A stretch of 64,000 bases of DNA from Candidatus Woesearchaeota archaeon (GTDB taxonomy: Archaea; Nanobdellota; Nanobdellia; Woesearchaeales; GCA-2687795): NCBI GenBank assembly GCA_030753365.1, contig JASMCJ010000008.1, forward strand, positions 928 to 64,927, read 5' to 3'. The first letter of the stretch is position 1; every line of letters starts with the position of its first letter. The notes under the pieces were generated by a model that was given only the letters and a program-made list of their open reading frames with translations, was not told the DNA's origin and made no database searches. The position numbers were made by a program, and so were the translations under genes. Positions 26,820-48,119 of the stretch are shown here, piece after piece.

Positions 26820-26822
26820 TTT

Positions 26823-28262: not shown

Positions 28263-28295
28263 ATAATTGTATTGAAATGATTAATTCTTTTTAAA

Positions 28296-28850: not shown

Positions 28851-28901
28851 ATTATTCTGCTTTTAGTAAGGTTTATTAATCTGTGATTGTAGTTTGATGT
28901 T

Positions 28902-29667: not shown

Positions 29668-29669
29668 AT

Positions 29670-30578
29670 TTAATCACCTTTTTTTGAAGCTAAATATCTT
29701 GCTGCCTTGATTAGTGCCATGCAGCCCTGCCCTGCAGCAATTATGTATTGATATTCATGACCTGATGCGCAGTCGCCTGCTGCAAAGATGCCTGGGGTGG
29801 TTGTATGTCCCTGACAGTCTATCTGAATATGTTTATGTTCGTCAAGCTTGACTATGTTTTTGAATGGTTCTGTGCTGGGGACTCTTCCAATCTCTATTAT
29901 TATGCCTTTGACGTTTAGTTGTTTTTCCTTTCCAGTTTGGCTATATTTTATTCCTGTTACGAATTTATTGCCTAAGATTTCTTTGGTTTCTGTGTTGAGG
30001 ATGATTTCTACTTTAGGGTTTTTCTTTACTCTTTCCTGTAGATATTCATGAGCTTTGAATTCGCTATCACGTAGAATAAGATAGATTTTTGAGGCTATGT
30101 CTTTCATAAAATCAACAGCTTCAAGAGCTGCATCTCCCCCGCCTATTACTGCTACTTCTTTATCTGAGAATAAGGGACCATCACAGATTGCACAGTAGGT
30201 TACACCCTTGTTTGCAAATTTCTGCTCTCCCGGAATGTTGAGCTTTCTTGCATTTGAGCCGGTAGCTATGATAACTGTCTTTGTCTCATATTGTTCTTTG
30301 TTTGTGATTACAAGGAAGTTTGAGGCTTTCTTTTTTATGTTCTTTACGGTTTCTAGTGAGACATTCACATTGTTGAATTTTGCCTGTTTTTCAAGAATTG
30401 AGCTAAATCCTACCCCTGTTGTTTTGACTATGCCAGGATAGTTGAGTACTTCTCCGCTTACCATGAACTGGCCACCAAAGATTGAAGAAAGAATCTTATA
30501 GTTCATCCTCTTTCTTGAAGCATAGATTGCTGCGGTTAAGCCTGATATGCCTGCACCGATTATTGTTGTGTCGTACAA
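29670..30578 (-). CDS. trxB: Thioredoxin-disulfide reductase
   Basis: FAD site GAGISGLTAA, redox-active CAICDG, NAD(P) site AVIGGGDAALE; 302 aa. Confidence 0.85.
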   Translation of the reverse strand: MYDTTIIGAGISGLTAAIYASRKRMNYKILSSIFGGQFMVSGEVLNYPGIVKTTGVGFSSILEKQAKFNNVNVSLETVKNIKKKASNFLVITNKEQYETKTVIIATGSNARKLNIPGEQKFANKGVTYCAICDGPLFSDKEVAVIGGGDAALEAVDFMKDIASKIYLILRDSEFKAHEYLQERVKKNPKVEIILNTETKEILGNKFVTGIKYSQTGKEKQLNVKGIIIEIGRVPSTEPFKNIVKLDEHKHIQIDCQGHTTTPGIFAAGDCASGHEYQYIIAAGQGCMALIKAARYLASKKGD

Positions 30579-30647
30579 ATTAGTTGCCTCTTTTATTAGG
30601 GAATTTATGATTAGAAGTATATTAGTAGATATAGTATAATAAAGTTA

Positions 30648-31285: not shown

Positions 31286-31288
31286 TTT

Positions 31289-31606: not shown

Positions 31607-31609
31607 TTT

Positions 31610-31843: not shown

Positions 31844-31920
31844 TTTTTGCCTCCTTGAATTCGTTTGTTTTTAGTGTATTATATTATATGTGGTTATAAT
31901 AACCTTTTGATTATAATAAT

Positions 31921-32018
31921 AAAAAATCCCAATCGCAGCAAGCTGCGGGGTATTTTTAGTATTTAGTTTGCGTATTAAGCCGATGCAAGCATCGGGGTAT
32001 AAAACCCAAACTAAATAA
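31921..32018. repeat. 99 nt structured repeat unit, identical to 10715..10813; serves as the terminator region of the pentapeptide gene
   Basis: 100% identity to copy at 10715. On the minus strand the HP1 hairpin is followed by ATTTTTT immediately 3' of the stop at 32019. Confidence 0.7.
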
Positions 32019-32684: not shown

Positions 32685-32720
32685 AACATTCTTTTGTTTC
32701 TTTCATTATTACTACCTTTT

Positions 32721-33284
32721 TTATATTTTCCCAACAAGCTCCAAACTGGGTTTTAATGTTTTTTCTCCAGGTTGCCAGTTCATTGGACAAACTTGCCCTT
32801 TGTGTTCCCTTATGAATTTTGCTGCATTGATTTTTCTTAGCAATTCGTTAATGCTTCTGCCTATATCGTTGTCATGGAATTCGAATGCTTTGATAATGCC
32901 TTCGGGATTGATGATAAATGTCGCCCTTAGTGATAAGCCTTCTTCTTCAATGTATGTGCCATAACTTTTGCTTACTTTTCCTGTAGGGTCGGCTAACATA
33001 GGAAATGTTATTTTTTTAATAGTTTCTGAGTTGTCATGCCATGCTTTGTGCACAAATACAGTGTCAGTGCTTATGCTGATTATTTCTGCACCTATTTCTT
33101 TTATTTTGTTATAATTATCTGCCAGTTCTCCAAGTTCTGTGGGGCAGACAAATGTAAAGTCTGCAGGGTAGAAAAAAAGTATGATCCATTTGCCTTTGTA
33201 ATCGCTTAAACTGATTTTTTTTGTTTCATTATTAATTAAAGCATCTGATGTAAAGTCTGGTGCTTTTTCGTTTATTGTTACCAT
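32721..33284 (-). CDS. Peroxiredoxin (AhpC/TSA family)
   Basis: Peroxidatic Cys motif FTFVCPTE; 187 aa. Confidence 0.85.
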   Translation of the reverse strand: MVTINEKAPDFTSDALINNETKKISLSDYKGKWIILFFYPADFTFVCPTELGELADNYNKIKEIGAEIISISTDTVFVHKAWHDNSETIKKITFPMLADPTGKVSKSYGTYIEEEGLSLRATFIINPEGIIKAFEFHDNDIGRSINELLRKINAAKFIREHKGQVCPMNWQPGEKTLKPSLELVGKI

Positions 33285-34478: not shown

Positions 34479-35951
34479 TTATTCTGAGAATACCTGCGCG
34501 CTGTATTTATAGATGTCAACGTTAGGAGATTTCCAACAGTCTTCTGGTGAGCCTTGTTTTAAGCATAGTCTTGATAAGAATCCTTCTTTGTCAGGCAATT
34601 GTTCCCAGACCTGAGGGAGATAGGTTGACTGCTTGTTGTTGTATACAATGATTACTCCATCTTCTAAAGGAGTTAGCTGGTCAAGGTATTCCTGCCAGTT
34701 GTTTGCTTTGATGAGAATTGGTATGTCCAAAACTGAAACTGTTATAGTGATTTTGTCTAGTTCATCTAGCTGGACTGGCTCAAACCTGGTATCTTTGGTG
34801 GCTGCGTTAATGGCATTATCTCTTACAGCAAGGTACATAGGCTGGACTGGCATAAGGCTGCCTATTGAACCTCTTAATATTCCATCTTTTTCTAAGCTGA
34901 CAAAAAGGCCTTTTTTTCTGAAAAGTTTTGGGAATGTAAAGATAAGCTTAGGCTCTAACATTTCATTATCTTTAACGTATAATTCAATGGTGTCTCTTGC
35001 TAAACTAAGCAGTAATGATTTTTCTGAATTACTTAAAGGAGTTTTGTTGTGAGCGACAACAGAACTGTAACCTACAACGCTTTCCTTGTTTCCTGTTGTG
35101 TCACCGCTATTTTTGTAATCAACCACACTGATGTCAAGATTTTTTTGGACGGCTAGCTGAAGGAATGCCAATAAGATGTTGTTGCCGTCAGTTATACATT
35201 GATTTATATTTTTATAGTTATAGGACATTAAAGAGCCTAAGCAGAACCCGTCAAGTTTAAGCGCTTCATTATAAGGATAGTAATGGGATAAGTCAATACT
35301 GAATACGTATAGTGTTTTTCCATCATCATATTCTAATAGTTTGTTTACAAATTCTTCAATTTGATTATCTGTTAATTTTCCCAAAATCATAGGGATGAGC
35401 TTAAAGTTAGGGTTTAATGCCTGGAGGAAGGGAAGCTCAACTTCTATCATTTGCATGTCATGCGCTCCTTCTACTGATTTGAATAAGCCGGATTTGGTGT
35501 TTAATAGTTCATAAGATGTTTTGGAAATTTCTGTTTCTCCAAGAGGAGTTTTATAGTGAGTATATTTGATTGGAAGGGATATGCCATTAAAGTTAATGTC
35601 GGAGTTATGGTTAGAGGCAATTACGAATACTCTTTCATATTGCCTGTCTAATTGTTTAAAGCTTTTAGCAGCTATTTCCCCTGAATATTGGTATCCGGCA
35701 TGAGGCACTATTATCGCATGGACTTCTTCTGATATAGTTTTTTCAGTATTGTCCAGAAAGGATTTGATCAGGCTGTAGAGTTCATTACTATTTTGAGGAT
35801 AGAATTGGCCTGCTGCTACTGGTTCTCTGACTGCTTTTTGCCTGGGTGCGCGGACTATTCCGCCTGTTATGCCACACCCTGAAATGAGTAAGAGGAGTAA
35901 GAGAATGGTGATTGTTAATGACTTTTTTTTATATAGCATAATTACCCCCAA
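34479..35951 (-). CDS. Fusion of MEMO1-family protein (AmmeMemoRadiSam system protein B-like) and AMMECR1 domain, with N-terminal lipoprotein-type signal peptide
   Basis: N-terminus ILLLLLLISGCGITGG. MEMO motif IIVPHAGYQYSG. AMMECR1 region GLFVSLEKDGILRGSIGSL, i.e. the conserved LRGCIG motif with Cys replaced by Ser. 490 aa. Confidence 0.7.
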   Translation of the reverse strand: MGVIMLYKKKSLTITILLLLLLISGCGITGGIVRAPRQKAVREPVAAGQFYPQNSNELYSLIKSFLDNTEKTISEEVHAIIVPHAGYQYSGEIAAKSFKQLDRQYERVFVIASNHNSDINFNGISLPIKYTHYKTPLGETEISKTSYELLNTKSGLFKSVEGAHDMQMIEVELPFLQALNPNFKLIPMILGKLTDNQIEEFVNKLLEYDDGKTLYVFSIDLSHYYPYNEALKLDGFCLGSLMSYNYKNINQCITDGNNILLAFLQLAVQKNLDISVVDYKNSGDTTGNKESVVGYSSVVAHNKTPLSNSEKSLLLSLARDTIELYVKDNEMLEPKLIFTFPKLFRKKGLFVSLEKDGILRGSIGSLMPVQPMYLAVRDNAINAATKDTRFEPVQLDELDKITITVSVLDIPILIKANNWQEYLDQLTPLEDGVIIVYNNKQSTYLPQVWEQLPDKEGFLSRLCLKQGSPEDCWKSPNVDIYKYSAQVFSE

Positions 35952-36089: not shown

Positions 36090-36764
36090 ATGATAGCAAT
36101 AATTTTTGGATTGGTAATGGGAATTACACATTATCTTAGTGAACATCTTAATTTGAAGGAGACAAAATATTATGCTCAATTAATCTCTTTTTCTGCAGGA
36201 ATTTCTATAACTTATATTTTTCTTGACTTGTTTCCACAGTTTAGTGAAGGGGCTATACAGATTAATAAGTTCTTGTTTATATTTGTGTTATTGGGATTTA
36301 TATCATTTCATTTGGTTGAGAAGTATATTTATTTGCATTCACCTAAAGATAAGTTAATAAGAGAGTTGGCTATAGAAGATACAGTGATTTCTTTTGTTTA
36401 TCATTTCATTGTTGGAATGATAATAGTCAGTTTTGTTGAACAAGGCTGGGTGAAAGGGACATTATTCTTTATTCCAGTATTGTTTTATACAGCTGTGAGT
36501 ACTTTGCCCGTAGATAAGACTAAGTTCATGGCTATTAGGTTTGTGTTATCAATGTCTACATTGTTAGGGGTTTTGTTTGCAAGCTTTGTAAATATAATTC
36601 CTATGATATATTATGCTTTGTTAGGGACTGTTATAGGAATATTGCTGTTCACGATTATCAGACATTCTATACCTTCAGGTAAGGAAGGAAAACCTTTATC
36701 CTTTACAATAGGAGTTATTGTTTATACTTTGATTATAATAACATTGAATTGGACGTTTATATAA
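36090..36764 (+). CDS. Polytopic membrane protein (hypothetical, 7-8 TM)
   Basis: 224 aa, hydrophobic throughout; no confident transporter signature. Confidence 0.35.
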   Translation: MIAIIFGLVMGITHYLSEHLNLKETKYYAQLISFSAGISITYIFLDLFPQFSEGAIQINKFLFIFVLLGFISFHLVEKYIYLHSPKDKLIRELAIEDTVISFVYHFIVGMIIVSFVEQGWVKGTLFFIPVLFYTAVSTLPVDKTKFMAIRFVLSMSTLLGVLFASFVNIIPMIYYALLGTVIGILLFTIIRHSIPSGKEGKPLSFTIGVIVYTLIIITLNWTFI

Positions 36765-36845
36765 GAAAAGAGGTGAAAAGGTTTTTAAAGGTAAAGGATT
36801 ATAAATGGCTTAATTGCATATTGATTTTAAAAAAGAGGTGAAAAA

Positions 36846-37091
36846 ATGTGCGGAAAATGTGGTGGTTTTTGTGTTATATCTGGAGTGGCAACATGGGGTT
36901 TCTTTGCTTTGTTGTTGAGTTTGTTGGGTGTTGGCAACGCTATGTTAAATGGGTTGTGGCTGACTATACTGATATTCTTGGCTTTTGTGTTCTGCCCTGT
37001 GCTGAATAAGAAGCTTGCAGAAAACTGTACGTGCGGTGTATGCAGTCCAAAAGCAGAAAAGCTTAAACCAAAGAAGGGAAAGAAGAAATAA
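36846..37091 (+). CDS. Small Cys-rich membrane protein
   Basis: 81 aa: MCGKCGGFC at the N-terminus, two TM helices, CTCGVCSP and a Lys-rich tail. Confidence 0.4.
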   Translation: MCGKCGGFCVISGVATWGFFALLLSLLGVGNAMLNGLWLTILIFLAFVFCPVLNKKLAENCTCGVCSPKAEKLKPKKGKKK

Positions 37092-37098
37092 AAATAGA

Positions 37099-39306
37099 CT
37101 ATAACCTTTTATGTTTGAGCAGTAAGGAGTTGCTTACAACGCTTACGCTGCTCATTGCCATTGCTGCTCCTGCAATTATAGGGGATAGGAGCCAGCCTGT
37201 GAAAGGGTAGAGGGCTCCTGCAGCTAACGGTATGCCTAAAGTATTATAGAATAATGCCCAGAACATGTTCTGCTTTATCTTTGACATTGTTAGTTTGCTT
37301 AATCTGATTGATCTTGGTACATCTAAGAGATCGTTTCTCATTAGTACAATGTTTCCTGTTTCCATAGCAACGTCTGTGCCAGATCCCATGGCGATGCCTA
37401 TGTCTGCCTGAGCTAGTGCTGGAGCATCGTTTATTCCATCACCTACCATAGCAACTTTTCCTTTCTTCTGAAGCTTTTTTACATATTTTGCTTTGTCTTC
37501 AGGTAAGACTTCTGCAAATACATGGTTTATGCCTGCCTGCTTGGCGATTGCATTGGCAGTTCTTTTATTGTCTCCGGTTATCATGTAAATAGAGATTTTC
37601 ATGTTTTGTAATTTTTTAACAGCAGCTTTGGATGTTTCTTTGATAGTGTCTGCTACTGTTATTATTCCAATAACTTTTTTTGAGTCTGAGAGGATCATAG
37701 CAGTTTTACCTTGTTCTTCAAGAGGTCCTATTTTGGATTTTAGTTTTTTTATGTTTATTTTGTTGTCTATCATTAACTTTGAATTGCCAAAGTAATACTG
37801 AGTTTTGTTTAGCTTGGCTTTTATGCCATGACCAGGGATTGCCCTGAATCCTTTAGGATTTCCTAAAGAAAGTTTGTTTTGTTTTGCTTTTTTTACAATT
37901 GCTTCTGCTAGTGGATGCTCAGAGTTTTTTTCTATGCTTGCTGCTAGTTGAAGCAATTTGTTTTCAGATTTGATGTTGATGGGAACTATGTCTGTTACTT
38001 CAGGCGTGCCTTTTGTTATTGTTCCTGTTTTATCGAAGATGATGGAGTTTAGCTTGTGTGCTGTTTCAAGGGCATCTCCTCCTTTGATGAGGATTCCTTT
38101 TTTAGCGCCTTTGCCTGTTCCTACCATTATGGCTGTGGGGGTTGCAAGGCCTAAAGCGCAGGGGCAAGCTATTACAAGGACAGAGACTGCAGCGATTAGA
38201 GCAAATTTTATGTCTTTTTCAAATAGAAAGAGCCAGGAAGAGAAGGTTAATATTGCAATGATTATTACGATTGGCACAAAATAAGAGGAGATTGTGTCGG
38301 CAAATCTCTGGATTGGAGCTTTCTTCCCCTGAGCTTCTTCTATGAGCTTTATTATTCTTGATAAAGTGGTGTTTTCTCCTACTTTTGTTGCCTTGAATTT
38401 AAAGCTACCCTGTTTGTTTATGGTGGCTCCGGTTACTATGTCACCTTCCTTCTTTTCAACTGGCATGCTTTCCCCGGTTACCATGCTTTCATCTATTGAT
38501 GAAGAGCCATCAGTTATTTTTCCGTCAACAGGGATTTTTTCTCCGGGTTTTACTAAGATTATATCTCCTTCAACAACATGGTCTATTTTTATTTTGATTT
38601 CTTTCCCATTTCGTATTACTGTTGCTGTTTTAGGAGATAAACCCATGAGCTTTTTTATTGCTTCAGAGGTTTTCCCTTTTGCTATGGCTTCAAGGAATTT
38701 TCCCATTATGACTAAGGTTATGAGGATTGCTGAGGTTTCAAAGTATTGGCCTAGTTCAGGGTTGAATAAGATAGCATATACGCTGAAGAAGTATGCAGCG
38801 CTTGTGCCTACTGCTATTAAAGTGTCCATGTTGGTTGTTTTGTTTTTTAATGCGTTCCATGCACCCCTATAGAATGACCAGCCTACTATGAACTGGACAG
38901 GTGTTGCTAAGAACCATAAAATATAATCTTGATAAGGAATTGTTATATCAAGCCACATGAAAACCATGCCGATTATGAAAGCAGGGATGGCGAAGAATAG
39001 GCTTAGAATGAATTTGTTTTTGAAAGTTTTTATTTCTTCTTTTTGCATTAGTTCATGTTTTTTTATGTTTTCTTCTTCTGAGCCTGGTGACGCTTTGTAG
39101 CCAGTGTTTTTGACTATGGTTATTAATTTTTTTTCTGAAATTAAAGTTTCATCATATAAGACAGAAGCATTGCTTGTAGAGAAGTTTACGTTGGCTTCTT
39201 TAACACCTTTAGACTTTGATAGGGATTTGTTGATTGTGACTGCGCAGGATGCGCATGTCATTCCAGCTATCTGAAGGTTTGTCTTTTTCATTTTTATTAC
39301 CTCCAT
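37099..39306 (-). CDS. copA: Copper-translocating P1B-type ATPase (CopA-like)
   Basis: N-terminal HMA domain GMTCASCAV, membrane CPC motif ([12 protein letters not shown]), DKTGTIT phosphorylation site, GDGINDAP hinge; 735 aa. Confidence 0.9.
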
Positions 39307-39449
39307 TTCTTTTTTATCTTTTGCTAATTTCTCTCAATATTAATGTATATATTAAAAATAATATGATACAGTACTATTTAGGGTTTTTCTTTTTATAGTT
39401 AGCCAAATATAAATAAAATAATAAAAAATAGTGAAAGAATAGGGGAAAA

Positions 39450-41225
39450 TCAGCTGATTATCCTTCTGCCAGAAGATGTTATTTTTATGGATTTAAACCG
39501 GCCTTTCTGCTCAACCTGTAATAATCCAATATTTTGAAGGTTGCTTATTTTGACTCGTGTTGTGGGTTTGGTGATTTTGAAGTTAATTGTGATGTCTTTG
39601 TAGGAGACTAATTTGTTAATCACATTGTTTTCATTAATGTATTTTAGAATGTTTAGTTCTAATTCAGATAGTTCTACTTTTTTCTTTAGGTGTTTTCCAT
39701 AGAGGTCTATGGTTTCTGCTTCTATTGCTTTAAGATGTGATTCTTGAATCAGTTCAGGGTTTACAGATAAGATGATTATGCAGTCGTGTTGTGTTGCAAG
39801 GTCTTTTAAGGCATGAATGTTCTTAAGTATGTCTTCAAACTGGTTTTCTGTTAAGAGGTAGTCTAACCTGTCCAGTAAAATAACGCTCTTTTCGCTCTTT
39901 TTAACAAATTCTGAGATTAACTTTGATAGATTCTCAATATTATTTTCGCAGGGTATTCCTTCTACTCTTGTGTATGTCAGCCAAACAAATGAAGTTTTAT
40001 GGAGATTATATCTCTTCTTGATGGCTCTTGGGTCTTCCCTAACAACACCTAAACCAGCAAAACCTCTGTTCAGAGAGCTGATGAATAACTCGTGCGCATG
40101 GTTTTCATCATCTTCTTTTACAAGATAAACTTTTCCCGCATCAAGGCTTATGTCTGCAAGAGTGTATTTGTCTTCTTCTGTCCCTATGTTTATTCCCAGC
40201 TTTTCCAAAGTAACATTGGTTTTATCTAATTCCATCTGAACTTTTTCTTTGGATTTGTATAAGGAGAAAATAAAGAAGAAAATTGTGGTTATAACTACTA
40301 TTACAAAGCCTAAACTAAAGAGATGCCTTCTTTGCATAATCCTTATCTCTTTTCCAACATTGTCTAAAGGAGTCAAAAGAATAAGCCTCCAGGTTTCTGA
40401 ACCAAGATATATGTCAGATGAAGTTATTATGGTTTCACCGAAGCCTTCAAAATGCGAAATAGTGTCCAAACCACCTTTCTTTAACAGATTATTGTAATTG
40501 TTTTCTAGTTCTGAGTAATCTTCTAATTGGCTGCTTTTTAGAATTGTTTCTTTAGAACTCATATCAATTAATAAAAAATAGTTTTCACCAGTTCTTATAA
40601 TTGGATGAAAATAAAGATCATATAATTTGTTAAGTTCAACAATGCTTAGTAGCGTTCCTTTGAATTCTCCAACGAAATTTGGATAAGGGGTGTATTTTGT
40701 TGTTTCAAATAAGGGAGCGGAAACAATAATCTGTAGATTACTGCCTTGATTGACTGAGCCTGCTATGAAGGGCTCGCTTGTTTCTTTGGGTATCTTAAAA
40801 TAGTCCTTGTTTTGGATGTTCATGCCCAAATAATCTGAAAATGAAGGTGAAGAACATTCTACTACATTACCAGCTTTATCTACTCTTATGAGTGAATCGA
40901 TTTTTCCTTCGATTTTTTCATGGACTAGTTTCATATTATCATTGCATTTGGTGATGTCAAATGTTTCCATTACTGGAAATTTGCTAAGAGTGATAAGTTC
41001 ATCTTTTACCTGAAGAATGTGGTTTTCTGTCTGGCTTGCAATATGTTCTGTTTTTATTAATTGATTTTCCTTTAACTGGTTTATTATTACCTCTTCAATA
41101 TCTGAAAATGAAAGATAATTGACTAATATAATTGATCCTATTATGACTAATGAAATTAGCGTAATTAACAATAACTTGTTGCTTTTCAGTATTTTTACCC
41201 TTTCAAAGAATATTGAAGACATCAT
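39450..41225 (-). CDS. Membrane-anchored sensor/regulator: TM1, a large extracytoplasmic Cache-like domain, TM2, a cytoplasmic RecA-fold-like (DUF835-type) domain and a C-terminal winged-helix DNA-binding domain
   Basis: Hydrophobic segments at aa ~17-38 and ~297-320. The C-terminal region ELNILKYINENNVINKLVSYKDITINFKITKPTTRVKISNLQNIGLLQVEQKG is wHTH-like. No histidine kinase or MCP motifs. Confidence 0.45.
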   Translation of the reverse strand: MMSSIFFERVKILKSNKLLLITLISLVIIGSIILVNYLSFSDIEEVIINQLKENQLIKTEHIASQTENHILQVKDELITLSKFPVMETFDITKCNDNMKLVHEKIEGKIDSLIRVDKAGNVVECSSPSFSDYLGMNIQNKDYFKIPKETSEPFIAGSVNQGSNLQIIVSAPLFETTKYTPYPNFVGEFKGTLLSIVELNKLYDLYFHPIIRTGENYFLLIDMSSKETILKSSQLEDYSELENNYNNLLKKGGLDTISHFEGFGETIITSSDIYLGSETWRLILLTPLDNVGKEIRIMQRRHLFSLGFVIVVITTIFFFIFSLYKSKEKVQMELDKTNVTLEKLGINIGTEEDKYTLADISLDAGKVYLVKEDDENHAHELFISSLNRGFAGLGVVREDPRAIKKRYNLHKTSFVWLTYTRVEGIPCENNIENLSKLISEFVKKSEKSVILLDRLDYLLTENQFEDILKNIHALKDLATQHDCIIILSVNPELIQESHLKAIEAETIDLYGKHLKKKVELSELELNILKYINENNVINKLVSYKDITINFKITKPTTRVKISNLQNIGLLQVEQKGRFKSIKITSSGRRIIS

Positions 41226-41433
41226 GATACCCGATTATAGGCTATATATAGCATTATTTTAAAAATTTCCCCTGTTTTTTCACTAATATTTGTCCTTATT
41301 TATATAGAAGATTAATAATCTAAGAGATATAAAGAAAGAATTGTTGTAGTTAAAAATAAATATTTAATAGAAAAGTTAATAAAAACAACTAACATTATCA
41401 AATATAATAATAAGATTATAGGAGGTAATAAAC

Positions 41434-42255
41434 ATGGAAGAAGACAGGAAAGATGAAGAAAAACATGGTACAGAACACCATCACATTAAACATGAACATC
41501 ATCATAGGCATGATAATGAAGGGAAGTTAATCACTAAATCTATTGTTACATTAATCGTAGCTTTGGTATTGATTCTGTTGTTTAATGAGGTTCAGATGAA
41601 TGCTATTTCAGGCATGGTAACTACTGGCGTTTCTGCTGGAGGAGTTAATCAGGCATCAAACTCAGAAACTAAAACAAGCAGCGGATCAACAAGTCTTTCA
41701 CAGAATAAGGACTTATCAGATATAAACTTAGAAGAAATAAAATCAACAGCTCATACGATCGCAGCAGTTTTCCCATTAGAAGGGTTAGATGGAGATGGTG
41801 TTATGGAAGTAATGTTCCCTATAGGAACACCGGAGTATGGTGAAGAGCTTGGAGTAAGTTTTGATGATCCTGTTACAGCTTTAAACGTATTAGCAAAAAT
41901 GTATAGGGGATTAAAAGCAGAAGTAGAAAAAAGCAATCCTGAAGCATTCCAAAGATTTGTAAACTTGGCTTCAAACCCTTATGGTATATCATGTGAATAC
42001 TGTTGTGGAATAGGTCCAGCTGGCGCAGATAAAAAAGGAAATTCTAAATGTGGTTGTGCGCATAATCCAGGAATACTAAGCTTGTCTTTATATCTCTCAG
42101 CATATACAGATTATAGTGATGGTGAAATTCTTAGAGAGGCTATGAGATGGAAAACTCTTTGGTTCCCAAAGAATATGATAGGACTAGGAGCAGATCTTGC
42201 TGGAGGAGACACGTCATCATTAGATAACCTGCCTGGAATGGTAGGAGGTTGTTAA
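41434..42255 (+). CDS. His-rich, Cys-rich membrane-anchored secreted protein ending in LPGMVGGC; strong SD (AGGAGGT)
   Basis: N-terminus HGTEHHHIKHEHHHRHD then one TM. Cys clusters CEYCCG and CGCAHN. C-terminus DNLPGMVGGC followed by stop. Confidence 0.45.
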   Translation: MEEDRKDEEKHGTEHHHIKHEHHHRHDNEGKLITKSIVTLIVALVLILLFNEVQMNAISGMVTTGVSAGGVNQASNSETKTSSGSTSLSQNKDLSDINLEEIKSTAHTIAAVFPLEGLDGDGVMEVMFPIGTPEYGEELGVSFDDPVTALNVLAKMYRGLKAEVEKSNPEAFQRFVNLASNPYGISCEYCCGIGPAGADKKGNSKCGCAHNPGILSLSLYLSAYTDYSDGEILREAMRWKTLWFPKNMIGLGADLAGGDTSSLDNLPGMVGGC

Positions 42256-42277
42256 GAATAAGTTAGGAGGACAAAAA

Positions 42278-42397
42278 ATGAAAAAAAGCACAATGATTTT
42301 TATTTTATTGTTGTTAGTAGTTGTTATATTTGTAGTAGGTTGTTCAACTCAAGGCAGCTATCCAGCACCATCAGGCCCAATAGGAGGCGGATGTTAG
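42278..42397 (+). CDS. Candidate 39 aa lipoprotein-type peptide (lipobox VVGC), Cys at both ends of the predicted mature peptide, ends GGGC
   Basis: AGGAGG 7 nt upstream of the ATG. Sequence MKKSTMIFILLLLVVVIFVVGCSTQGSYPAPSGPIGGGC. Below the ORF-track cutoff. Confidence 0.35.
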   Translation: MKKSTMIFILLLLVVVIFVVGCSTQGSYPAPSGPIGGGC

Positions 42398-42410
42398 ATT
42401 AACAAAGAAA

Positions 42411-42827
42411 ATGCAGTATGTACCAAAAGAAGAGAATAAGGAAGAGGTTTTAAAAGAGCACCAACATAGAGAGGATAATTTAAGGCTGGATAAAGAAAAG
42501 GCTGCTAAGAAAAAAAAAGGAGTGATTATTATTGCTCTGGTATTCTTTTCAGTCATTGCTGCTGTGGTTACCTATGGATTGCTTTCACCTGGAAGGTATG
42601 ATAACTTTGCAAAGTGCCTTACAGAGAAAGGTGCTGTTATGTATGGAGAGGATTGGTGCCAGTATACAAACGCGCAAAAGAATATGTTTGGAAAGTCTTT
42701 CAAATATATTCATTATGAAGTAAATGAGAATCTTAATAAAAGACCTACATGGGTTATTAATGGGAAGAGTTATGAGACTGTGCAGTCTTTTGAAAGATTG
42801 GCTTCATTAACAGGATGTGAAATTTGA
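42411..42827 (+). CDS. Membrane-anchored thioredoxin-fold protein with monothiol CxxT motif (paralog of 45406..45774)
   Basis: YDNFAKCLTEKGAVMYGEDWCQYTNAQKNMFG aligns with YDSFAQCLTEKGVKMYGGYWCPHCANQKDMFG of the downstream paralog. The active site reads WCQYT here and WCPHC there. Confidence 0.5.
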   Translation: MQYVPKEENKEEVLKEHQHREDNLRLDKEKAAKKKKGVIIIALVFFSVIAAVVTYGLLSPGRYDNFAKCLTEKGAVMYGEDWCQYTNAQKNMFGKSFKYIHYEVNENLNKRPTWVINGKSYETVQSFERLASLTGCEI

Positions 42828-42872
42828 GTAAAAGATGATTTTTGAAACATATAAACTTAGGAGGTAAATAGA

Positions 42873-43109
42873 ATGAAACAAACAACAATTGTTACAGTAA
42901 TATTGGCTGTGCTTGTGCTTATTTCAGTTGTTCAAGCAGTTCAGTTGAATGGACTTAAAGCAAAATTGACAGGAGGAGAATTAGGTGTAATAAGTTCTTC
43001 TTCAGGGAACACAGCTCTTACTACCACTCCTTCTTCTGGAAGTGGCAAGAGAGTGTCCAGTCTGCCTAGCAGTATAAAGGATTTGCCACAGATGGTTGGC
43101 GGCTGTTAA
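42873..43109 (+). CDS. Small secreted Ser/Thr/Gly-rich protein ending in LPQMVGGC
   Basis: 78 aa; N-terminal signal/TM, low-complexity SSSSGNTALTTTPSSGSG, C-terminus KDLPQMVGGC then stop; SD AGGAGGT upstream. Confidence 0.4.
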   Translation: MKQTTIVTVILAVLVLISVVQAVQLNGLKAKLTGGELGVISSSSGNTALTTTPSSGSGKRVSSLPSSIKDLPQMVGGC

Positions 43110-43178
43110 GTTCAACCGTTATTTTATCTTTTTATATTTGTGAGAATGTCATAAAAGAGATTAAAGGAGGAATAAAGA

Positions 43179-44423
43179 ATGGAAGAACATCATGAGCATA
43201 AAGAACACCATAAACAAAGTCACCACCATGAATCTGAAGAGCATCATGAACATAGAAAACATCATAAAACTCATCATAAGAAGAGGAGAGTTCCAAATAG
43301 ATCGTTTTATAATAGAATGTATATAACTTTAGGAGTAGTTTTGATTCTATTTATGTTATATAACCTTTCACAGACATTGTCTATTAATATTACACTTGAT
43401 CAAAAGATTGCTAATGTAAAAGAGGCTGCAAAGCCTGCTGAGATTAGTTTAACAGTGATTTCTACAAGCTCATGTAAAGATTGTTATGATATTAATTCAG
43501 CTGTGGAAGTTATTGAGTCAATTGGTGTGAGTGTGACAAGCAAAGAGATTGATTTTTCTTCTGAAGAGGCTAAAGCGCTTATTGCAGAGCATACTATTGA
43601 GAAGGTTCCTACAGTAATCGTGACTGGAGAGATTGATAAGTCTTCTTCATTGAAAAGGACTCTTGGAGAGATAGGAAAAGAGAGCGGTGATGCATATGTG
43701 TTTACCAGTTTAGAACCACCGTTTATTGAAACTAAGACTGGAATGGTTAGAGGGAAGATATCATTGGTGCATCTTAAGAAAGAGAGTTGCGATGATTGCA
43801 TTGATTTAGCTCCGTTAATAAGCCAGTTAAGCGCATCAGGATTAATCCTTGAAGAGAGCGAAGAGATAGATGTTGATAGCACAAAAGGGAAGGAATTAGT
43901 GAAGAAGTATAGTGTTGAAAAGATTCCTACAATTATAATGGATAAGGAAGCTGAGGTTTATCCTAATATTGTACAGAGCTGGAGCCAGCTTGGAAGTGTT
44001 GAAGGAGATGGATCATATGTTATGAGGGAGGTTAGTTCTCCTTATTATAGCATTGAAGAAGAGGCTATTAAGGGATTAATTTCTATGATAATATTAAGTG
44101 ATGAAACTTGTGAGGAATGTTATGATGGAGGAGAATTTCACAGCCCTGTTTTACAAAGGATGGGAATCACATTCAAAGAAGAGGATGAGTTAGATGTTTC
44201 CAGTGAAGAAGGGAAGGAATTGGTGGAGAAATATAGTATAAATCTTGTTCCTACTATAATAATTACAGGAGATATTGAGGAATATCCTGTGTTAGTAAGC
44301 GCATGGGTAGAAGTTGGAACTGAAGAGTCTGATGGAAACTATGTGTTTAGAAAGGTTGAGATTGCTAACCAACCTTATAAGAATCTGACTGATGGAAAGG
44401 TTGTTGGAAGTAGAACAGAATAA
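43179..44423 (+). CDS. His-rich N-terminal tail, one TM, then three tandem thioredoxin/glutaredoxin-fold modules each carrying CxxC (protein-disulfide-oxidoreductase-like)
   Basis: N-terminus MEEHHEHKEHHKQSHHHESEEHHEHRKHHKTHHKK. Three ~100 aa repeats with SCKDCYD, SCDDCID and TCEECYD, each followed by a VPT(V/I)I(V/M) beta-strand motif. Confidence 0.55.
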   Translation: MEEHHEHKEHHKQSHHHESEEHHEHRKHHKTHHKKRRVPNRSFYNRMYITLGVVLILFMLYNLSQTLSINITLDQKIANVKEAAKPAEISLTVISTSSCKDCYDINSAVEVIESIGVSVTSKEIDFSSEEAKALIAEHTIEKVPTVIVTGEIDKSSSLKRTLGEIGKESGDAYVFTSLEPPFIETKTGMVRGKISLVHLKKESCDDCIDLAPLISQLSASGLILEESEEIDVDSTKGKELVKKYSVEKIPTIIMDKEAEVYPNIVQSWSQLGSVEGDGSYVMREVSSPYYSIEEEAIKGLISMIILSDETCEECYDGGEFHSPVLQRMGITFKEEDELDVSSEEGKELVEKYSINLVPTIIITGDIEEYPVLVSAWVEVGTEESDGNYVFRKVEIANQPYKNLTDGKVVGSRTE

Positions 44424-44492
44424 AATGATTATTCAGAAAAGTCTTTGGATTCTTTCTTGTTTTCTCTTTATTGTATGTAGAGGTGATAAAAT

Positions 44493-44732
44493 ATGAATAA
44501 GATTTTAGTTATTATTGGATTAGTAGTTGGAATTGGAGGGATTATTTTTTCGTTGCTGCCTCCTGATATGCATATGGCTCTTTTTGGCGGGAGTGACCAA
44601 ATGAAATCTGAAATGAGTGGTATGAATAATATGGATTCGGGACATCACAATCATGGAGCATTTGTTACATATGGACTTGTTGTAGCTGTAGTAGGACTTG
44701 GTGCTGCTGTGGCAGGATGGAAAATCTTTTGA
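44493..44732 (+). CDS. Small two-TM protein with Met/His-rich loop (candidate metal-binding)
   Basis: 79 aa; loop MKSEMSGMNNMDSGHHNHG between two hydrophobic helices. Confidence 0.35.
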   Translation: MNKILVIIGLVVGIGGIIFSLLPPDMHMALFGGSDQMKSEMSGMNNMDSGHHNHGAFVTYGLVVAVVGLGAAVAGWKIF

Positions 44733-44737
44733 TTTAA

Positions 44738-45409
44738 ATGAAAGAAGGTAAAAAGAATTATTTATGGGCAGGGGTCGTAGGAGGGTTTACTGCAACAACT
44801 TGTTGCATTGCTCCTATTATTCTTGTTTTGTTAGGCTTTGGAACAGCTGTTAGTATGGCAGTGATGCATCAATTCCATATAGTTAGTATTGTTTCAGGAA
44901 TTGTTCTTATGATACTGATAAGCCTATATCTTGTAAAACGTAAATCCGGAACTTGCAGTATTAATGCAGTTAAACAGAACTGGAAAAGTATTGTGATTGC
45001 AATAATAATCATGGGAGGATCATGGGCAGTCATTAATTATCTTGTTATTGCTCCAGTTGCAGCATCTGTGTATAATAAATTGCCTGTTGAGCAAAAGCCT
45101 TTAGGCAATCTTAAAGAGATGGCTGAATCTCATGGTATGCCTGAGATGGCTAATATTAAGGTTGAGCCTGAGCAGGAAGGAAAGAAATTGATTGTGTTAG
45201 AGATTGAGGGGGTATTCTGCGGCTCTTGCGGCCCTTCTATAGAGTATGATGTTAAAAGTGTTTTAGGGGTCTTGGAAGTAGAAACTTCAGGAACAACTAT
45301 GAGTGTTACATATGATTCTGATGTTACAAGCAAGGATGTGATTGTTGCGAGTATTCATGATCCTTATTCAGCTACAATTATTGAAGAAGAAAAATTATTA
45401 TCTAAGTGA
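44738..45409 (+). CDS. MerT-like membrane domain (vicinal CC) fused to a C-terminal heavy-metal-associated (HMA, MerP/CopZ-like) domain
   Basis: TM1 FTATTCCIAPIILVLLGFG (MerT-like CC motif); C-terminal IVLEIEGVFCGSCG HMA metal-binding motif; 223 aa. Confidence 0.6.
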   Translation: MKEGKKNYLWAGVVGGFTATTCCIAPIILVLLGFGTAVSMAVMHQFHIVSIVSGIVLMILISLYLVKRKSGTCSINAVKQNWKSIVIAIIIMGGSWAVINYLVIAPVAASVYNKLPVEQKPLGNLKEMAESHGMPEMANIKVEPEQEGKKLIVLEIEGVFCGSCGPSIEYDVKSVLGVLEVETSGTTMSVTYDSDVTSKDVIVASIHDPYSATIIEEEKLLSK

Positions 45410-45774
45410 GATGGTTAAAGATGAATATTAAACAAATATTAGGAATTGTTTTGATTTGTTCAGTCTTGGTTATGGTTGGATGCTCAAGCATTAATTATGA
45501 TAGTTTTGCACAATGCCTTACAGAGAAAGGTGTTAAGATGTATGGGGGATATTGGTGTCCGCATTGCGCTAACCAAAAGGATATGTTTGGAAATTCTTTT
45601 GGTTATGTGAATTATATTGAATGTTCGCTTCCTAATAGAGAAGGAAAAACAGAAATATGTATAGAAGAGGATATAAAAGTTTATCCTACATGGGAGTTTG
45701 CAGACGGAAGCAGGAAAGAAAGAGTACATTCATTGGAACAATTGAGCGCGTTTAGCGGATGTAGCATAGAATAA
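45406..45774 (+). CDS. Membrane-anchored/secreted thioredoxin-like protein (WCPHC active site)
   Basis: 122 aa; N-terminal hydrophobic anchor, WCPHC, thioredoxin-fold spacing. Confidence 0.7.
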   Translation: MRWLKMNIKQILGIVLICSVLVMVGCSSINYDSFAQCLTEKGVKMYGGYWCPHCANQKDMFGNSFGYVNYIECSLPNREGKTEICIEEDIKVYPTWEFADGSRKERVHSLEQLSAFSGCSIE

Positions 45775-45798
45775 AAAATATTACGGAGGAAAAACAAA

Positions 45799-46335
45799 AT
45801 GACTTTAACATCAAATGTTACAAATATTTTATCTTTATTGACTATTTTTGGAAATATTTTGATAGGGTATTTCCTTATTCTTTTTATCTTTAAGAAAGAG
45901 ATTAAAGTTTCCGGATTTTTAAAGAAAAATGCTTTACTCTTTGCTTTTATTGTTGCACTAATCGCTACAACTGGGAGTTTATTTTATTCTGAGATTGCTG
46001 GTTATGAACCCTGTAAATTATGTTGGTTTCAAAGAATCTTTATGTATCCACTGGTTATTTTGTTTGGGACAGCTTTAATTAAAAAAACACGTAGTGTTGT
46101 TCACTATGCAATACCTATGAGCATAATAGGAGGATTTATTGCTGCATATCATTATGCTATTCAAAGGTTGACTTATTCAGCTTCTTGTTCAGCAGATGGA
46201 ACTTCATGTACTGCTAAATACTTTTTTCATTATGGTTATATTACTATTCCAATGATGGCTTTGACTGCTTTTATATTAATAATTATTTTATGTTTTATTC
46301 TGAAGAGTAAAAAAATAAAAAGTGATGAAAAGTGA
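45799..46335 (+). CDS. DsbB/BdbC-family disulfide bond formation protein B
   Basis: EPCKLCWFQRIFMYP first-loop CxxC motif and a second Cys pair in the later periplasmic loop (SCSADGTSC); 4 TM; SD GGAGG upstream. Confidence 0.7.
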   Translation: MTLTSNVTNILSLLTIFGNILIGYFLILFIFKKEIKVSGFLKKNALLFAFIVALIATTGSLFYSEIAGYEPCKLCWFQRIFMYPLVILFGTALIKKTRSVVHYAIPMSIIGGFIAAYHYAIQRLTYSASCSADGTSCTAKYFFHYGYITIPMMALTAFILIIILCFILKSKKIKSDEK

Positions 46336-47300
46336 AGACTAAAAAACTTCTTATTTTTTTTATATTTCTTGTTATTATTTCATCTTATGTTTTTGCACAG
46401 TCTGAGATACCTATTGGATTACAGAGGATTATTGATTTTAATAAGCAAAGCACTATGGATTTTGCTGTTAAGATTTCATTTTTTGTGGCTTTTGTTGCAG
46501 GAATTTTAGGGATTTTATCTCCTTGTATATTACCATTTCTGCCTGCTTATTTTTCTTATACGTTTAAAGAGAAGAAGAATATTACAAAGATGACTTTGGT
46601 TTTCTTTTTAGGGTTTTCAACAGTGTTTGTTGCAATGGGCTTGATTGCAGGATATATTGGAGAGAGGTCTTTGATGATTGTACAAAGCAGCTGGCTGGTT
46701 AGTATTGCTGGATTGTTTTTGATAGTATTGGGTGTTATGTCTTTGTTGGGTAAAGGATTTTCTTCTTTTATTAAGTTTCATCATAAGTTTAAGAATGACG
46801 TTATAGGAACTTTTCTGTTTGGAGTGTTTTTTGCTATTGGATGGACTGCTTGCTTAGGTCCAATATTGGGAGGTATCTTGGGGATTGGAGCGATCCTTCA
46901 TAATATGTTTTATTCAGGTTTGCTACTGTTCTTTTATTCTTTAGGTAATCTTGTGCCTTTGTTTCTTTTTTCAGTGTTCTATGATAAGTTTAAGCTTTCT
47001 GAGAGCAAGCTCATTAAAGGGAAGATGTTTAAGTTTTCAGTTTTAGGAAAAGAGTTCAATGTGCATTCTACTAATCTTATTTCTGGGTCTTTGTTTATAA
47101 TAATAGGGAGTATACTAATTATTTTTAAAGGGACTGCTATATTCAATACATGGGATTTTCTTGGAACAAAACAATACTTCTATTCATTCCAGGACCTGCT
47201 TATTGACTGGAAGTATGCAAATATTCTTGGGGTGACTATTTTTGCTTTGTTTGTTGTGATTGTTGGAAGGTTTTTGTGGAAGAATAAGAACAAGAAATAA
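46332..47300 (+). CDS. ccdA: CcdA/DsbD-family transmembrane thiol:disulfide electron-transfer protein, with C-terminal extension
   Basis: LSPCILPFLPAYFSY and GWTACLGPILG conserved-Cys motifs; 322 aa. Confidence 0.75.
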   Translation: MKTKKLLIFFIFLVIISSYVFAQSEIPIGLQRIIDFNKQSTMDFAVKISFFVAFVAGILGILSPCILPFLPAYFSYTFKEKKNITKMTLVFFLGFSTVFVAMGLIAGYIGERSLMIVQSSWLVSIAGLFLIVLGVMSLLGKGFSSFIKFHHKFKNDVIGTFLFGVFFAIGWTACLGPILGGILGIGAILHNMFYSGLLLFFYSLGNLVPLFLFSVFYDKFKLSESKLIKGKMFKFSVLGKEFNVHSTNLISGSLFIIIGSILIIFKGTAIFNTWDFLGTKQYFYSFQDLLIDWKYANILGVTIFALFVVIVGRFLWKNKNKK

Positions 47301-48119
47301 TTATTCTTTAATATGTCCATCAACCCCAACAGTTATCTGTTTTAGAGTTATTCTTTTACCTGATTCATTTAATGCTTCTTCAACAATACTGTATAGTCCA
47401 TAGCAACATGGCACTTCCATGATTGCAACGGTTATTGTGTTAAGATTGTTCATTTCTATTATTCCTTTTATTTTTTCTTTGTATTCTTCTATATCATCAA
47501 GTTTAGGGCAGCCTATTGCTAGTGATCTTCCTTTGATTAATTGGCTTTGTAGGTTTGGGTTTGCAAAGCCAACACAGTCTGCTGCTATTAATAAGTCTGA
47601 GTCCTGAAAGAATGGTGCAGATGGTGGGAGAAGGTTGAGTTGGATAGGCCATTGCCTTAGTTCTGATTCTTGTTCAGAAGAAGGTTGGTTATTTTTGGGT
47701 TTTAATTCTCTTAGTTGTGTTCCTGGACAGCCGCAGGGTAAATCTTCTTTCATTTTAGTTTCCTCCATTGTGATTTTTATATTGTTTTCATTGAGATATT
47801 CTACCGCTTCATTGAGCAGTTTTGTTTCTCCATGATCTTTGAGATGTTTTAGATGCGCTTTGATTGTGTTTTCTCCATGTTTTACAATGTTTTCCATTGT
47901 TTTCTTTTCATCATAGGGTTCTGCTTCTCTCTCTTCTATGGTTATTGCGCCTTCAGGGCAGTGACCTATGCAAGCGCCTAAGCCATCACAGAATAAGTCA
48001 CTGATTAATCTTACTTTGCCATCTATTATTTGCAATGCGCCTTCTGGGCAGTTGGGGATGCATTTGCCGCAACCGTTGCATTTGGTTTCGTCTATTTTGA
48101 TTATACTTCTTTTTACCAT
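47301..48119 (-). CDS. 4Fe-4S dicluster-domain protein with Cys-rich C-terminal domain
   Basis: CNGCGKCIPNCP and CDGLGACIGHCP ferredoxin motifs; further Cys pairs (CGCPG, CPKL, PCCYG). Confidence 0.5.
   Translation of the reverse strand: MVKRSIIKIDETKCNGCGKCIPNCPEGALQIIDGKVRLISDLFCDGLGACIGHCPEGAITIEEREAEPYDEKKTMENIVKHGENTIKAHLKHLKDHGETKLLNEAVEYLNENNIKITMEETKMKEDLPCGCPGTQLRELKPKNNQPSSEQESELRQWPIQLNLLPPSAPFFQDSDLLIAADCVGFANPNLQSQLIKGRSLAIGCPKLDDIEEYKEKIKGIIEMNNLNTITVAIMEVPCCYGLYSIVEEALNESGKRITLKQITVGVDGHIKE

Follow-up and report, generated by a model that had tools for sequence, protein, structure and literature searches.

A conserved X-S-TRI-CcdA cassette with Gly-Gly-Cys-ended proteins in a copper- and thiol-related gene cluster of a marine Woesearchaeota genome

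Copper insertion by the TlpA/Sco/PCuAC pathway requires reduced cysteines both in a copper chaperone and in the CuA cupredoxin, and a reducing thioredoxin outside the cytoplasm maintains them in that state. In the Scs systems, the DsbD-like ScsB feeds ScsC and ScsD for copper tolerance (PMC10907172, PMC3322552), and ScsC binds Cu(I) with sub-picomolar affinity (PMC8900818). We have analysed a 64-kb stretch of DNA (the window) from the genome of a marine Woesearchaeota archaeon, a member of the DPANN archaea. A cluster of metal and thiol-disulfide genes at 36090-47300 contains four genes encoding three proteins that we call X, S and TRI and a CcdA-type transporter. Envelope thiol-reducing pathways are already known; this particular set, which is common to many tiny DPANN archaea, seems to be undescribed. 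Our preferred and best-supported reading, to which we assign a probability of roughly 45%, is that a CcdA-fed relay keeps Cys-tipped surface proteins reduced, and that the arms of these proteins bind or hand over Cu(I) or absorb oxidation. In function, the cassette would be closest to Scs and to TlpA/Sco-type CuA maturation.

Like the cassette as we read it, the ScsABCD loci of Salmonella, Proteus and Caulobacter combine a DsbD/CcdA-superfamily transporter that feeds envelope thioredoxin folds with clustered copper genes; they are induced by stress, and the Scs thioredoxin-fold proteins protect against copper. In contrast, the CcdA of the window is minimal, with transmembrane (TM) segments only and without the periplasmic domains of ScsB, and TRI has three thioredoxin- or glutaredoxin-like domains and is not DsbA-like as is ScsC. 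Moreover, X, S and a small lipopeptide, which all end in Gly-Gly-Cys, have no Scs counterpart, and the host is a single-membrane archaeon. The resemblance to Scs thus appears to be one of function only, and not of family. More generally, none of the copper, carrier and cytochrome families that we have compared (Scs, TlpA/Sco, SoxY and CcmH) has a member here.

The open reading frames (ORFs) of the window were screened against Pfam, NCBIfam and the PDB, and topology was derived from a simple hydropathy and positive-inside analysis. Patterns derived from X were scanned over one genome per GTDB species, which gave 124 confirmed relatives. The locus counts below refer to the best 80 of the 124 X-bearing loci, 32 of which have at least 5 kb on both sides (the full-flank loci). 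The 14 window proteins were mapped by phmmer onto all ORFs of the 80 loci, and the called genes were clustered. The X-bearing relatives are labelled Woesearchaeota, Nanoarchaeota, Pacearchaeota, Micrarchaeia, Iainarchaeum and others, including a few doubtful bins.

In most loci with enough flank, the genes followed the order X, S, TRI, CcdA. Among the full-flank loci, CcdA was found in 31 of 32, TRI in 28 and S in at least 27. Forty-two loci were co-directional from X through CcdA, and 18 of them had no extra genes in between other than, at most, those of a monothiol thioredoxin and the lipopeptide. The order was kept across lineages in which X is only 40-60% identical. The clustering is therefore not a product of chance, since the core order recurs in dozens of species-level genomes. 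An earlier note on this DNA, made from the letters alone, had proposed to check whether the island is conserved in related genomes. The four-gene core was indeed retained, while DsbB (3 of 80 loci), the MerT-HMA fusion (2 of 80) and CopA (18 of 80 within 10 kb of X) were not. The conserved core is X, S, TRI and CcdA; CopA, DsbB and MerT-HMA are accessory. The 11-kb island is not a single co-inherited unit; its other genes have been assembled, in a lineage-specific way, around an old cassette of four. A literature search combining DPANN, CcdA and thioredoxin found no relevant paper. Three of the X-bearing contigs (L043, L062 and L068; L numbers denote individual related loci) are labelled bacterium or Patescibacteria group bacterium.

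One could argue that copper efflux, oxidative folding and a CcdA pathway merely lie side by side in a small genome, with no joint function. This would agree with the absence of CopA, DsbB, MerT-HMA and the ZIP gene (near X in 1 of 80 loci) each from most related loci, with an unremarkable GC content, and with the location of CopA and the sensor on the opposite strand. However, the core order has outlasted the divergence of X, genes within the cluster overlap or abut (45406/45409 and 46332/46335), and copper-linked genes are many-fold enriched around X, as described below. We regard simple co-location as rather improbable.

From the N- to the C-terminus, protein X has a His-rich tail in the cytoplasm, a single TM helix, a linker of low complexity, a helical domain that is conserved in the family, and a flexible end. 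The conserved domain carries the invariant SCEYCCG…CGCxHNP, with its cysteines at C187, C190, C191, C206 and C208 and its histidine at H210, and the C-terminus reads LPGMVGGC. In an alignment of 26 members with 53-67% identity, the invariant motifs were P-x-G-x-P-x-Y-G, S-C-E-x-C-C-G, C-G-C-x-H-N-P, W-K-T…F-P and the LPGMVGGC end, and the more distant paralogues (30-40% identity) and fused forms retained CE[YF]CC, CGCAH and the MVGGC end. The cytoplasmic tail was variable and its His-rich stretch was not conserved. The earlier note had taken X merely as a His-rich secreted protein. The His-rich stretches of X and TRI lie N-terminal to their single TM helix, on the K/R-rich side, and are thus predicted to be cytoplasmic and not secreted.

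X of the window is identical to a protein of a marine Woesearchaeota metagenome-assembled genome, and its contig occurs in TARA-type samples. Clustering at 90% identity gave at least 1151 clusters for the X family, every one annotated as hypothetical; at 50% identity there were 279 representatives (E up to 1e-3). No Pfam or NCBIfam family matched X, searches of PDB sequences with the single sequence and with the profile gave only noise (E >0.9), and Foldseek of the X model against the PDB returned nothing at E <4. The AlphaFold model was all-helical, with a C-terminal tail of low confidence (pLDDT about 49) that is predicted to be flexible. We have treated X as a family without known relative, as far as sequence and model comparison can tell.

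A CcdA transporter followed by a CcmG-like thioredoxin and a CcmH-like protein is the reducing route of cytochrome c maturation, and X could in principle be its CcmH-like apocytochrome thiol reductase. Alignment of the X family with E. coli CcmH by hhalign gave a probability of 0.4%, and, as already said, neither the PDB profile search nor Foldseek found anything for X. No ORF of at least 60 amino acids (aa) in the 64-kb window contained CxxCH, and haem-handling families were not among the recurrent neighbours. Compared with the CcdA/DsbD-CcmG-CcmH systems, X lacks sequence or profile similarity to CcmH and has extra Cys and His residues as well as the tail, which places it outside the CcmH family. 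To our knowledge, DPANN archaea are generally without respiratory cytochromes. A CcmH-like role for X is thus very improbable.

Several lineages had X with a 4-TM domain joined to its N-terminus, in which GC[PA]xCG lies inside a helix (L052 9266-10669, L081 9251-10645; P0171, P0173 and P0309). This domain, which we count among the links of X to metal, was free-standing in about eight other loci and had no Pfam match even at E up to 5. In one further protein, P0038, X and S are joined and MVGGC occurs twice, through natural read-through or because a stop codon was missed.

S starts with a signal peptide whose last residues are VQA. A short amphipathic stretch and a Ser/Gly-rich linker follow, and the protein terminates in LPQMVGGC; it is in effect X minus the globular domain. 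Its tail matched that of X at 9 of 13 aligned residues. The S family ranges from 65 to 112 aa, and 77 S ORFs directly follow X in the related loci. The ending [LP]xMVGGC (LPxMVGGC or a near variant) was present in 75 of the 77, and 46 had a [VAI]QA site ahead of [FVIL]Q[LIV]. Likewise, LPGMVGGC terminated 68 of 85 X proteins. Of 12331 ORFs in the related loci, 168 were GGC-terminal, and nearly all of these were X, S or lipopeptide. A homology search with S returned only other S proteins of 65-96 aa and no further tail-bearing architectures, and a literature search with the string MVGGC found no relevant paper.

The third Gly-Gly-Cys-ended product is a pre-lipopeptide of the sequence MKKSTMIFILLLLVVVIFVVGC/STQGSYPAPSGPIGGGC (full product, MKKSTMIFILLLLVVVIFVVGCSTQGSYPAPSGPIGGGC), whose gene is also present in the public annotation of the same contig. 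It displays a lipobox-like VVGC, a Pro-rich spacer and a C-terminal GGGC, and would yield an 18-residue lipopeptide. The family was found in nine other loci, always immediately upstream of the monothiol thioredoxin gene, with GP[IV]GGGC(G) as C-terminus. Both this gene and the LPxMVGGC ends shared by X and S had escaped the earlier note. A thioredoxin-family protein encoded downstream of CcdA also ends in CDV[ST]GGC (L001 14384-14929 and L027 13779-14252).

Cysteines on mobile C-terminal segments are known from other proteins. Those of Erv2 (CGC), mammalian TrxR (GCUG), MerA (CC) and CCS (CxC) move electrons or metal between a buried centre and its partner. These tails belong to flavoenzymes or chaperone folds, whereas here the tail also occurs as free-standing mini-proteins. 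In the Sox system, the arm of SoxY is kept active by a CcdA-type transporter (SoxV) together with a periplasmic thioredoxin (SoxW/SoxS). The SoxY cysteine stands on a flexible, Gly-rich C-terminal arm (GGCGG) and carries the substrate (PMC5336275). SoxY is, however, a beta-sandwich that works with SoxZ and the Sox enzymes, whereas X is all-helical and S is domainless, and no residue follows the cysteine of X and S. The likeness stops at the Gly-Gly-Cys arm, so that X and S are not SoxY-type proteins, and no sox families were among the neighbours in the related loci.

LPxMVGGC could instead be a signal for C-terminal processing or anchoring, cut after Gly-Gly by a peptidase or transpeptidase or lipidated at its Cys, and X and S would then be structural surface proteins. 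Conservation at six non-Cys residues of the tail equals that of the Cys, and the tail is found on proteins with otherwise unrelated bodies. The spacing of [DN]-L-P-x-M-V-G-G may resemble that of positions -8, -7, -4, -2 and -1 in double-glycine leaders. A BlaR1-like HExxH membrane peptidase is also encoded upstream in 19 of 80 loci, but its gene comes together with that of a BlaI-like repressor, in alternation with the DUF835 sensor gene, which suggests a regulatory role. The cassette has no conserved peptidase or transferase; its conserved partners are redox proteins, and the removal of a single residue would make an odd signal. Furthermore, LPxMV is missing from the GGGC(G) and SGGC ends of the lipopeptide and of one thioredoxin family, which argues that the Gly-Gly-Cys thiol itself is functional. 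We consider a processing signal quite improbable.

TRI matched the Thioredoxin_3, Thioredoxin and Glutaredoxin families and has three thioredoxin folds, with the motifs CKDC, CDDC and CEEC. Its six Cys (C-x-[DE]-C-[YF]-D, three times) and three cis-prolines were invariant in 45 orthologues. Against the archaeal protein disulfide oxidoreductase (PDO) model TIGR02187 it scored 38.2 bits, below the cut-off of 185, and it is therefore not counted as a PDO; archaeal PDO has two thioredoxin folds, whereas TRI has three folds and three invariant CxxC motifs and is membrane-anchored. Its topology is N-in, with the thioredoxin folds predicted outward, and the His-rich stretch ahead of its TM helix is not conserved. 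All thioredoxin-fold proteins of the cluster have one N-terminal TM helix or signal peptide with positive charges before it, and all their thioredoxin-fold domains, as well as the X domain and an HMA domain of the cluster, are predicted to face outside. The earlier note would have been contradicted by cytoplasmic thioredoxin folds in a genome not enriched in secreted Cys-rich proteins, and the topology check agreed with it.

The transporter scored 53.6 bits with the CcdA family PF02683 (cut-off 27.1; 2.4e-14) and 33.5 bits with DsbD_2 (cut-off 24.9). Its only two Cys lie in SPCILPF and TACLGPIL, among eight hydrophobic segments, which is the two-Cys TM pattern of CcdA, and its start overlaps the DsbB stop codon. 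Because its CxxC dipeptides are acidic and its pairing with CcdA is fixed, TRI probably acts in the reducing direction, for which ResA, CcmG and TlpA-type proteins are the known comparators. On the cytoplasmic side, a thioredoxin-reductase (TrxR)-like protein and a small CPFC redoxin are encoded 10-17 kb upstream of the cluster. We infer that the former is the start of the electron chain and the latter the donor to CcdA.

The cluster also contains an oxidising pair. DsbB was recognised by PF02600 (53.5 bits, cut-off 22.1; 4.5e-14) and has both Cys pairs of DsbB/BdbC, in CKLCWFQR and CSADGTSC. The adjacent CPHC thioredoxin matched 3kp8_A, the thioredoxin-like domain of Synechococcus VKOR, over residues 36-121 (E 4.5e-18); the public call is 117 aa long and starts five codons later, at ATG 45421. 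Its WC[PS]HC subfamily adjoins DsbB and CcdA, and it is likely the DsbA-equivalent partner of DsbB. The pair thus corresponds to a standard DsbB-DsbA system, except that this type of thioredoxin is fused to VKOR in cyanobacteria; no VKOR was found in the cluster, and the membrane protein beside the VKOR-type thioredoxin is DsbB. A monothiol paralogue with 35% identity to the CPHC protein (E 3e-23; N-in, C-out) is instead paired with the GGGC lipopeptide. Its active site lacks a CxxC, as throughout the WC[QKP]YT subfamily, whereas the CPHC protein has one. Members of this subfamily lie between X/lipopeptide and S/TRI in about 19 loci.

These elements bear on another reading of X, as a new disulfide-generating catalyst analogous to DsbB, VKOR or Erv, in which a CxxC in a helical bundle would work with a cofactor or metal and the C-terminal Cys would shuttle. 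TRI would then be a PDI/DsbA-like carrier to secreted Cys-rich proteins, and CcdA would supply an isomerase function. In Erv2 and Ero1, a CxxC is combined with a shuttle cysteine on a mobile segment, and the all-helical X, with CE[YF]C and a flexible Cys tail, echoes this layout. With DsbB so rare near X, these lineages may need another oxidant, and the window encodes a Cys-rich surface protein with MopE motifs. On the other hand, the invariant partner CcdA carries electrons outward, which is the reducing direction, the C-x-[DE]-C motifs of TRI are acidic, unlike the CPHC of DsbA-like proteins, this genome has X alongside a complete DsbB/CPHC pair, and X shows no evident flavin or quinone motif. 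We consider this role for X unlikely. The earlier note had recognised both the oxidative branch, with DsbB and a DsbA-like thioredoxin, and the reductive branch, with CcdA and the triple thioredoxin, and both are present. The purpose it had proposed, the folding of disulfide-rich surface proteins, was not supported: the conserved core points to a reducing pathway with dedicated cysteine-tailed clients.

The link to copper comes from the neighbouring genes. Twelve of the 32 full-flank loci had CopA no more than 10 kb from X, whereas for a single-copy gene, with a genome size near 1 Mb, about one locus would be expected by chance. One or more copper-linked genes (CopA, HMA, DUF411, Met-rich protein or CuA-type cupredoxin) were present in 20 of the 32, and copper genes are thus strongly enriched near X. 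Furthermore, the commonest insert between TRI and CcdA, in 9 of the 42 co-directional loci, encodes a CuA-motif cupredoxin. These inserts are small lipoproteins with H…C-x3-C-x3-H-x2-M that matched Cupredoxin_1 (PF13473) and COX2 (L003 13065-13508, L012 12718-13158, L038 12496-12882 and others). As cargo of the TRI-CcdA interval, they are a point of likeness to TlpA/Sco/PCuAC; in contrast to that pathway, there are no Sco or PCuAC homologues, and X is unrelated in sequence and fold. The window's own cluster contains no cupredoxin. A second recurrent module was observed upstream of the sensor in 9-12 loci (including L003 3445-5852 and L031 4728-7944). Besides DUF411, it encodes a secreted Met-rich protein and two membrane families, as yet uncharacterised, in which HCPLC and CHSVC motifs occur.

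The window itself adds to this link with CopA, the MerT-like/HMA fusion, the Met/His-loop protein, the ZIP-like permease and the MopE-motif protein. The earlier note had listed the first three in an island with copper-handling parts and had pointed to the last as a Cys-rich giant protein, and these were confirmed. CopA had E1-E2_ATPase (4.8e-68), HAD Hydrolase (7.4e-39) and HMA (4.9e-14) domains and the motifs GMTCASC (in HMA), CPC, DKTGT and GDGINDAP, which are the domains and motifs of a P1B-1 Cu(I) ATPase and make Cu(I) its probable substrate. The MerT-like/HMA fusion has three TM segments, a Cys pair in TM1 (TTCCIAP) and an outward HMA domain with CGSC. Its HMA match was above the cut-off (26.5 bits), while MerT (24.2 bits, cut-off 32.9) and NCBIfam MerTP (38.5 bits, cut-off 180) were below, so that it is best called MerT-like and not a certified MerT or MerTP member. 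The outward loop of the Met/His-loop mini-protein reads MKSEMSGMNNMDSGHHNH, and the protein recurs with the CPHC thioredoxin and DsbB in L035 and L044. The Cys-rich protein at 2-2056 runs off the start of the window and has 40 Cys in 657 aa, with repeated Cu-binding_MopE motifs (PF11617, E 5.7e-15).

In our preferred reading, reducing equivalents would pass from the cytoplasmic thioredoxin reductase and the small CPFC redoxin across the membrane via CcdA. TRI would take up these electrons on its three outward thioredoxin folds, with their acidic CxxC motifs, and act as a distributor that keeps dedicated clients reduced. The common trait of the clients would be a flexible C-terminal arm ending in Gly-Gly-Cys: X, with the arm and the helical domain bearing CE[YF]CC…CGCxH, S, with nothing but the arm, and the lipopeptide. 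At the surface, the arms in their reduced form, and with them the Cys/His cluster of X, may provide thiolates that bind or carry a thiophilic metal, for which Cu(I) is the likeliest candidate. The arms could buffer the metal or exchange it with Cys-motif membrane proteins and pass it to cupredoxins, and arms oxidised by copper or oxygen would be recycled. In this genome, the cassette would be controlled by the divergent DUF835 sensor with its winged helix-turn-helix (wHTH), next to CopA, the MerT-like/HMA fusion and the Met/His-loop protein, and would also include the GGGC lipopeptide and the monothiol thioredoxin. DsbB and the CPHC thioredoxin would form a separate oxidising pair inserted between TRI and CcdA. 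Gene content, the outward topology, the conserved order, the invariant motifs and the enrichment of copper genes near X come from the comparisons themselves; we infer the direction of electron flow, the tails as clients of TRI and copper as the ligand.

Several points weigh against this proposal. The host is a single-membrane archaeon without a closed periplasm, and the benefit of a secreted S is hard to see. The strict conservation of L, P, M, V, G and G in the tail would equally suit recognition by a processing enzyme. The Cys loop of X was modelled with only moderate AlphaFold confidence (pLDDT 75-81), X has no detectable relative of known function, and its metal role is derived from motifs and neighbours. 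Finally, about a third of the well-sampled loci have no copper genes, so that copper could be one setting among several in which the cassette works and need not be its actual function.

The Gly-Gly-Cys tails might also take the place of glutathione or another low-molecular-weight thiol, in a form that is encoded by genes and tethered to the surface. DPANN cells are not known to make small thiols. Displayed or secreted, the X tail, S and the 18-residue lipopeptide would have the terminal Cys as their sole functional group, and the WC[QKP]YT thioredoxin would behave as a monothiol glutaredoxin that adds or removes peptide thiols. TRI and CcdA would act as the glutathione reductase, and X would use the arms as co-substrate. 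Such a protein-based extracellular redox and metal buffer would be of an undescribed kind; we see only a small chance that this is so.

DPANN archaea are abundant, mostly uncultured and dependent on their cell surface to live on a host. Even tentative roles have been assigned to very few of their conserved hypothetical proteins, and the X family is now tied to CcdA, TRI and copper genes. If the CcdA-fed relay is real, the cassette would be an archaeal counterpart of the bacterial Scs/TlpA envelope-reducing systems, X would represent a new copper- or redox-active protein fold, and a C-terminal MVGGC would be a simple sequence mark for clients.

The genes of the cluster and the two putative cytoplasmic donors are listed in Table 1. 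The earlier note had described a metal and thiol-disulfide cluster here, and the ORF, Pfam, NCBIfam and PDB screens recovered all the genes it listed where it had placed them; the annotation has been corrected for the ZIP-like permease, the 39-aa gene and the MerT-like fusion.

Table 1. Genes of the thiol-disulfide and metal cluster, and candidate cytoplasmic electron donors, by position in the window
Feature	Coordinates	Strand	Basis or remark
ZIP-like permease, divergent, putative divalent-metal type, 224 aa, 0 Cys	36090..36764	+	accessory
Cys-rich two-TM mini-protein, 81 aa, 7 Cys	36846..37091	+	ORF, two hydrophobic segments
CopA, P1B-type Cu(I)-exporting ATPase (by sequence), one N-terminal HMA	37099..39306	-	Pfam and motifs
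DUF835/winged-helix membrane sensor-regulator	39450..41225	-	Pfam, TM segments
Protein X, 273 aa	41434..42255	+	ORF, alignment
Pre-lipopeptide, 39 aa	42278..42397	+	ORF, AGGAGG site
Monothiol thioredoxin-fold protein, 138 aa, membrane-anchored, WCQYT	42411..42827	+	paralogy to CPHC protein
Protein S, 78 aa	42873..43109	+	tail alignment to X
TRI, membrane-anchored triple-CxxC thioredoxin protein	43179..44423	+	Pfam, motif invariance
Two-TM mini-protein, Met/His-rich outward loop	44493..44732	+	ORF, TM segments
MerT-like/HMA fusion	44738..45409	+	Pfam/NCBIfam scores
Dithiol thioredoxin, WCPHC, 122 aa, lipoprotein-like	45406..45774	+	PDB match 3kp8_A
DsbB/BdbC-type disulfide-generating membrane protein (by family)	45799..46335	+	PF02600
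CcdA-type transmembrane thiol-electron transporter (by family)	46332..47300	+	PF02683
Thioredoxin-reductase-like flavoprotein, CAIC	29670..30578	-	Pyr_redox_2 and Pyr_redox_3 matches
CPFC glutaredoxin/thioredoxin-like protein, 77 aa	31610..31843	-	Glutaredoxin match

A ribosome-binding site (GGAGG or GAGGTG) preceded 8 of the 12 plus-strand genes, in agreement with the strong sites reported earlier for most of them, and two further plus-strand genes overlap the preceding gene. The GC content was 0.33-0.39 across the cluster and matched the remaining window, and the cluster is therefore a functional and not a compositional island. A horizontally acquired island was considered and rejected, as a GC anomaly was absent. 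Scans of the 64-kb window for tRNA genes and Rfam families gave no match.

The sensor-regulator is divergent from X. It matched DUF835 (PF05763; 1.3e-25, 90.2 bits, cut-off 33.1), had a C-terminal winged helix (3.7e-4), weak FlaH matches and TM segments at 10-30 and 300-326, and is thus arranged as an extracytoplasmic domain between two TM segments, a DUF835 domain (degenerate KaiC/FlaH-like) and a winged helix. Of the Cache-like/wHTH membrane regulator described previously, the winged helix and the membrane sensor were borne out, while for the Cache part there was only a weak dCache_1 match in one sensor orthologue. A DUF835 gene was near X in 22 of 80 loci, mostly directly upstream on the opposite strand, and in about 20 others a BlaI/BlaR-like pair took its place divergently upstream of X. 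This suggests that the DUF835 sensor and the BlaI/BlaR1-like pair are two interchangeable sensing modules for the same cassette. Examples with a BlaI-like repressor and a BlaR1-like HExxH membrane protease are L034, L041, L045, L048, L050, L053, L078 and L080. The 208-bp divergent promoter region (41226-41433) gave weak matches to AT-rich repeats and no convincing operator, and the literature search for DUF835 found only a census of archaeal signalling proteins.

At the left end of the cluster, the Cys-rich two-TM mini-protein has MCGKCGGFC at its N-terminus, CTCGVC near its C-terminus and a GAGGTG ribosome-binding site. It matched no Pfam or NCBIfam family, and it is kept beside the ZIP gene and CopA in close relatives.

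The putative donors in Table 1 belong to a cytoplasmic redox and oxidative-stress cluster to the left (26304-33284), with rubrerythrin (26304-26819), desulfoferrodoxin (29284-29667), the TrxR-like protein, a cupin, the CPFC glutaredoxin-like protein and a 2-Cys peroxiredoxin (32721-33284). It also contains a second MerT-like protein, with GGLCCF, at 30902-31285. If this left-hand cluster is counted in, stress-related genes extend over about 21 kb. A MEMO-AMMECR1 fusion with a lipoprotein-like N-terminus (34479-35951, minus strand) is encoded between the two clusters. On the other side, convergent with CcdA, the minus-strand gene at 47301-48119 encodes a protein of 272 aa that has 13 Cys and, in its N-terminal part, a 2x[4Fe-4S] ferredoxin domain, and homologues of this protein were found within 10 kb of X in L005, L052 and L078.

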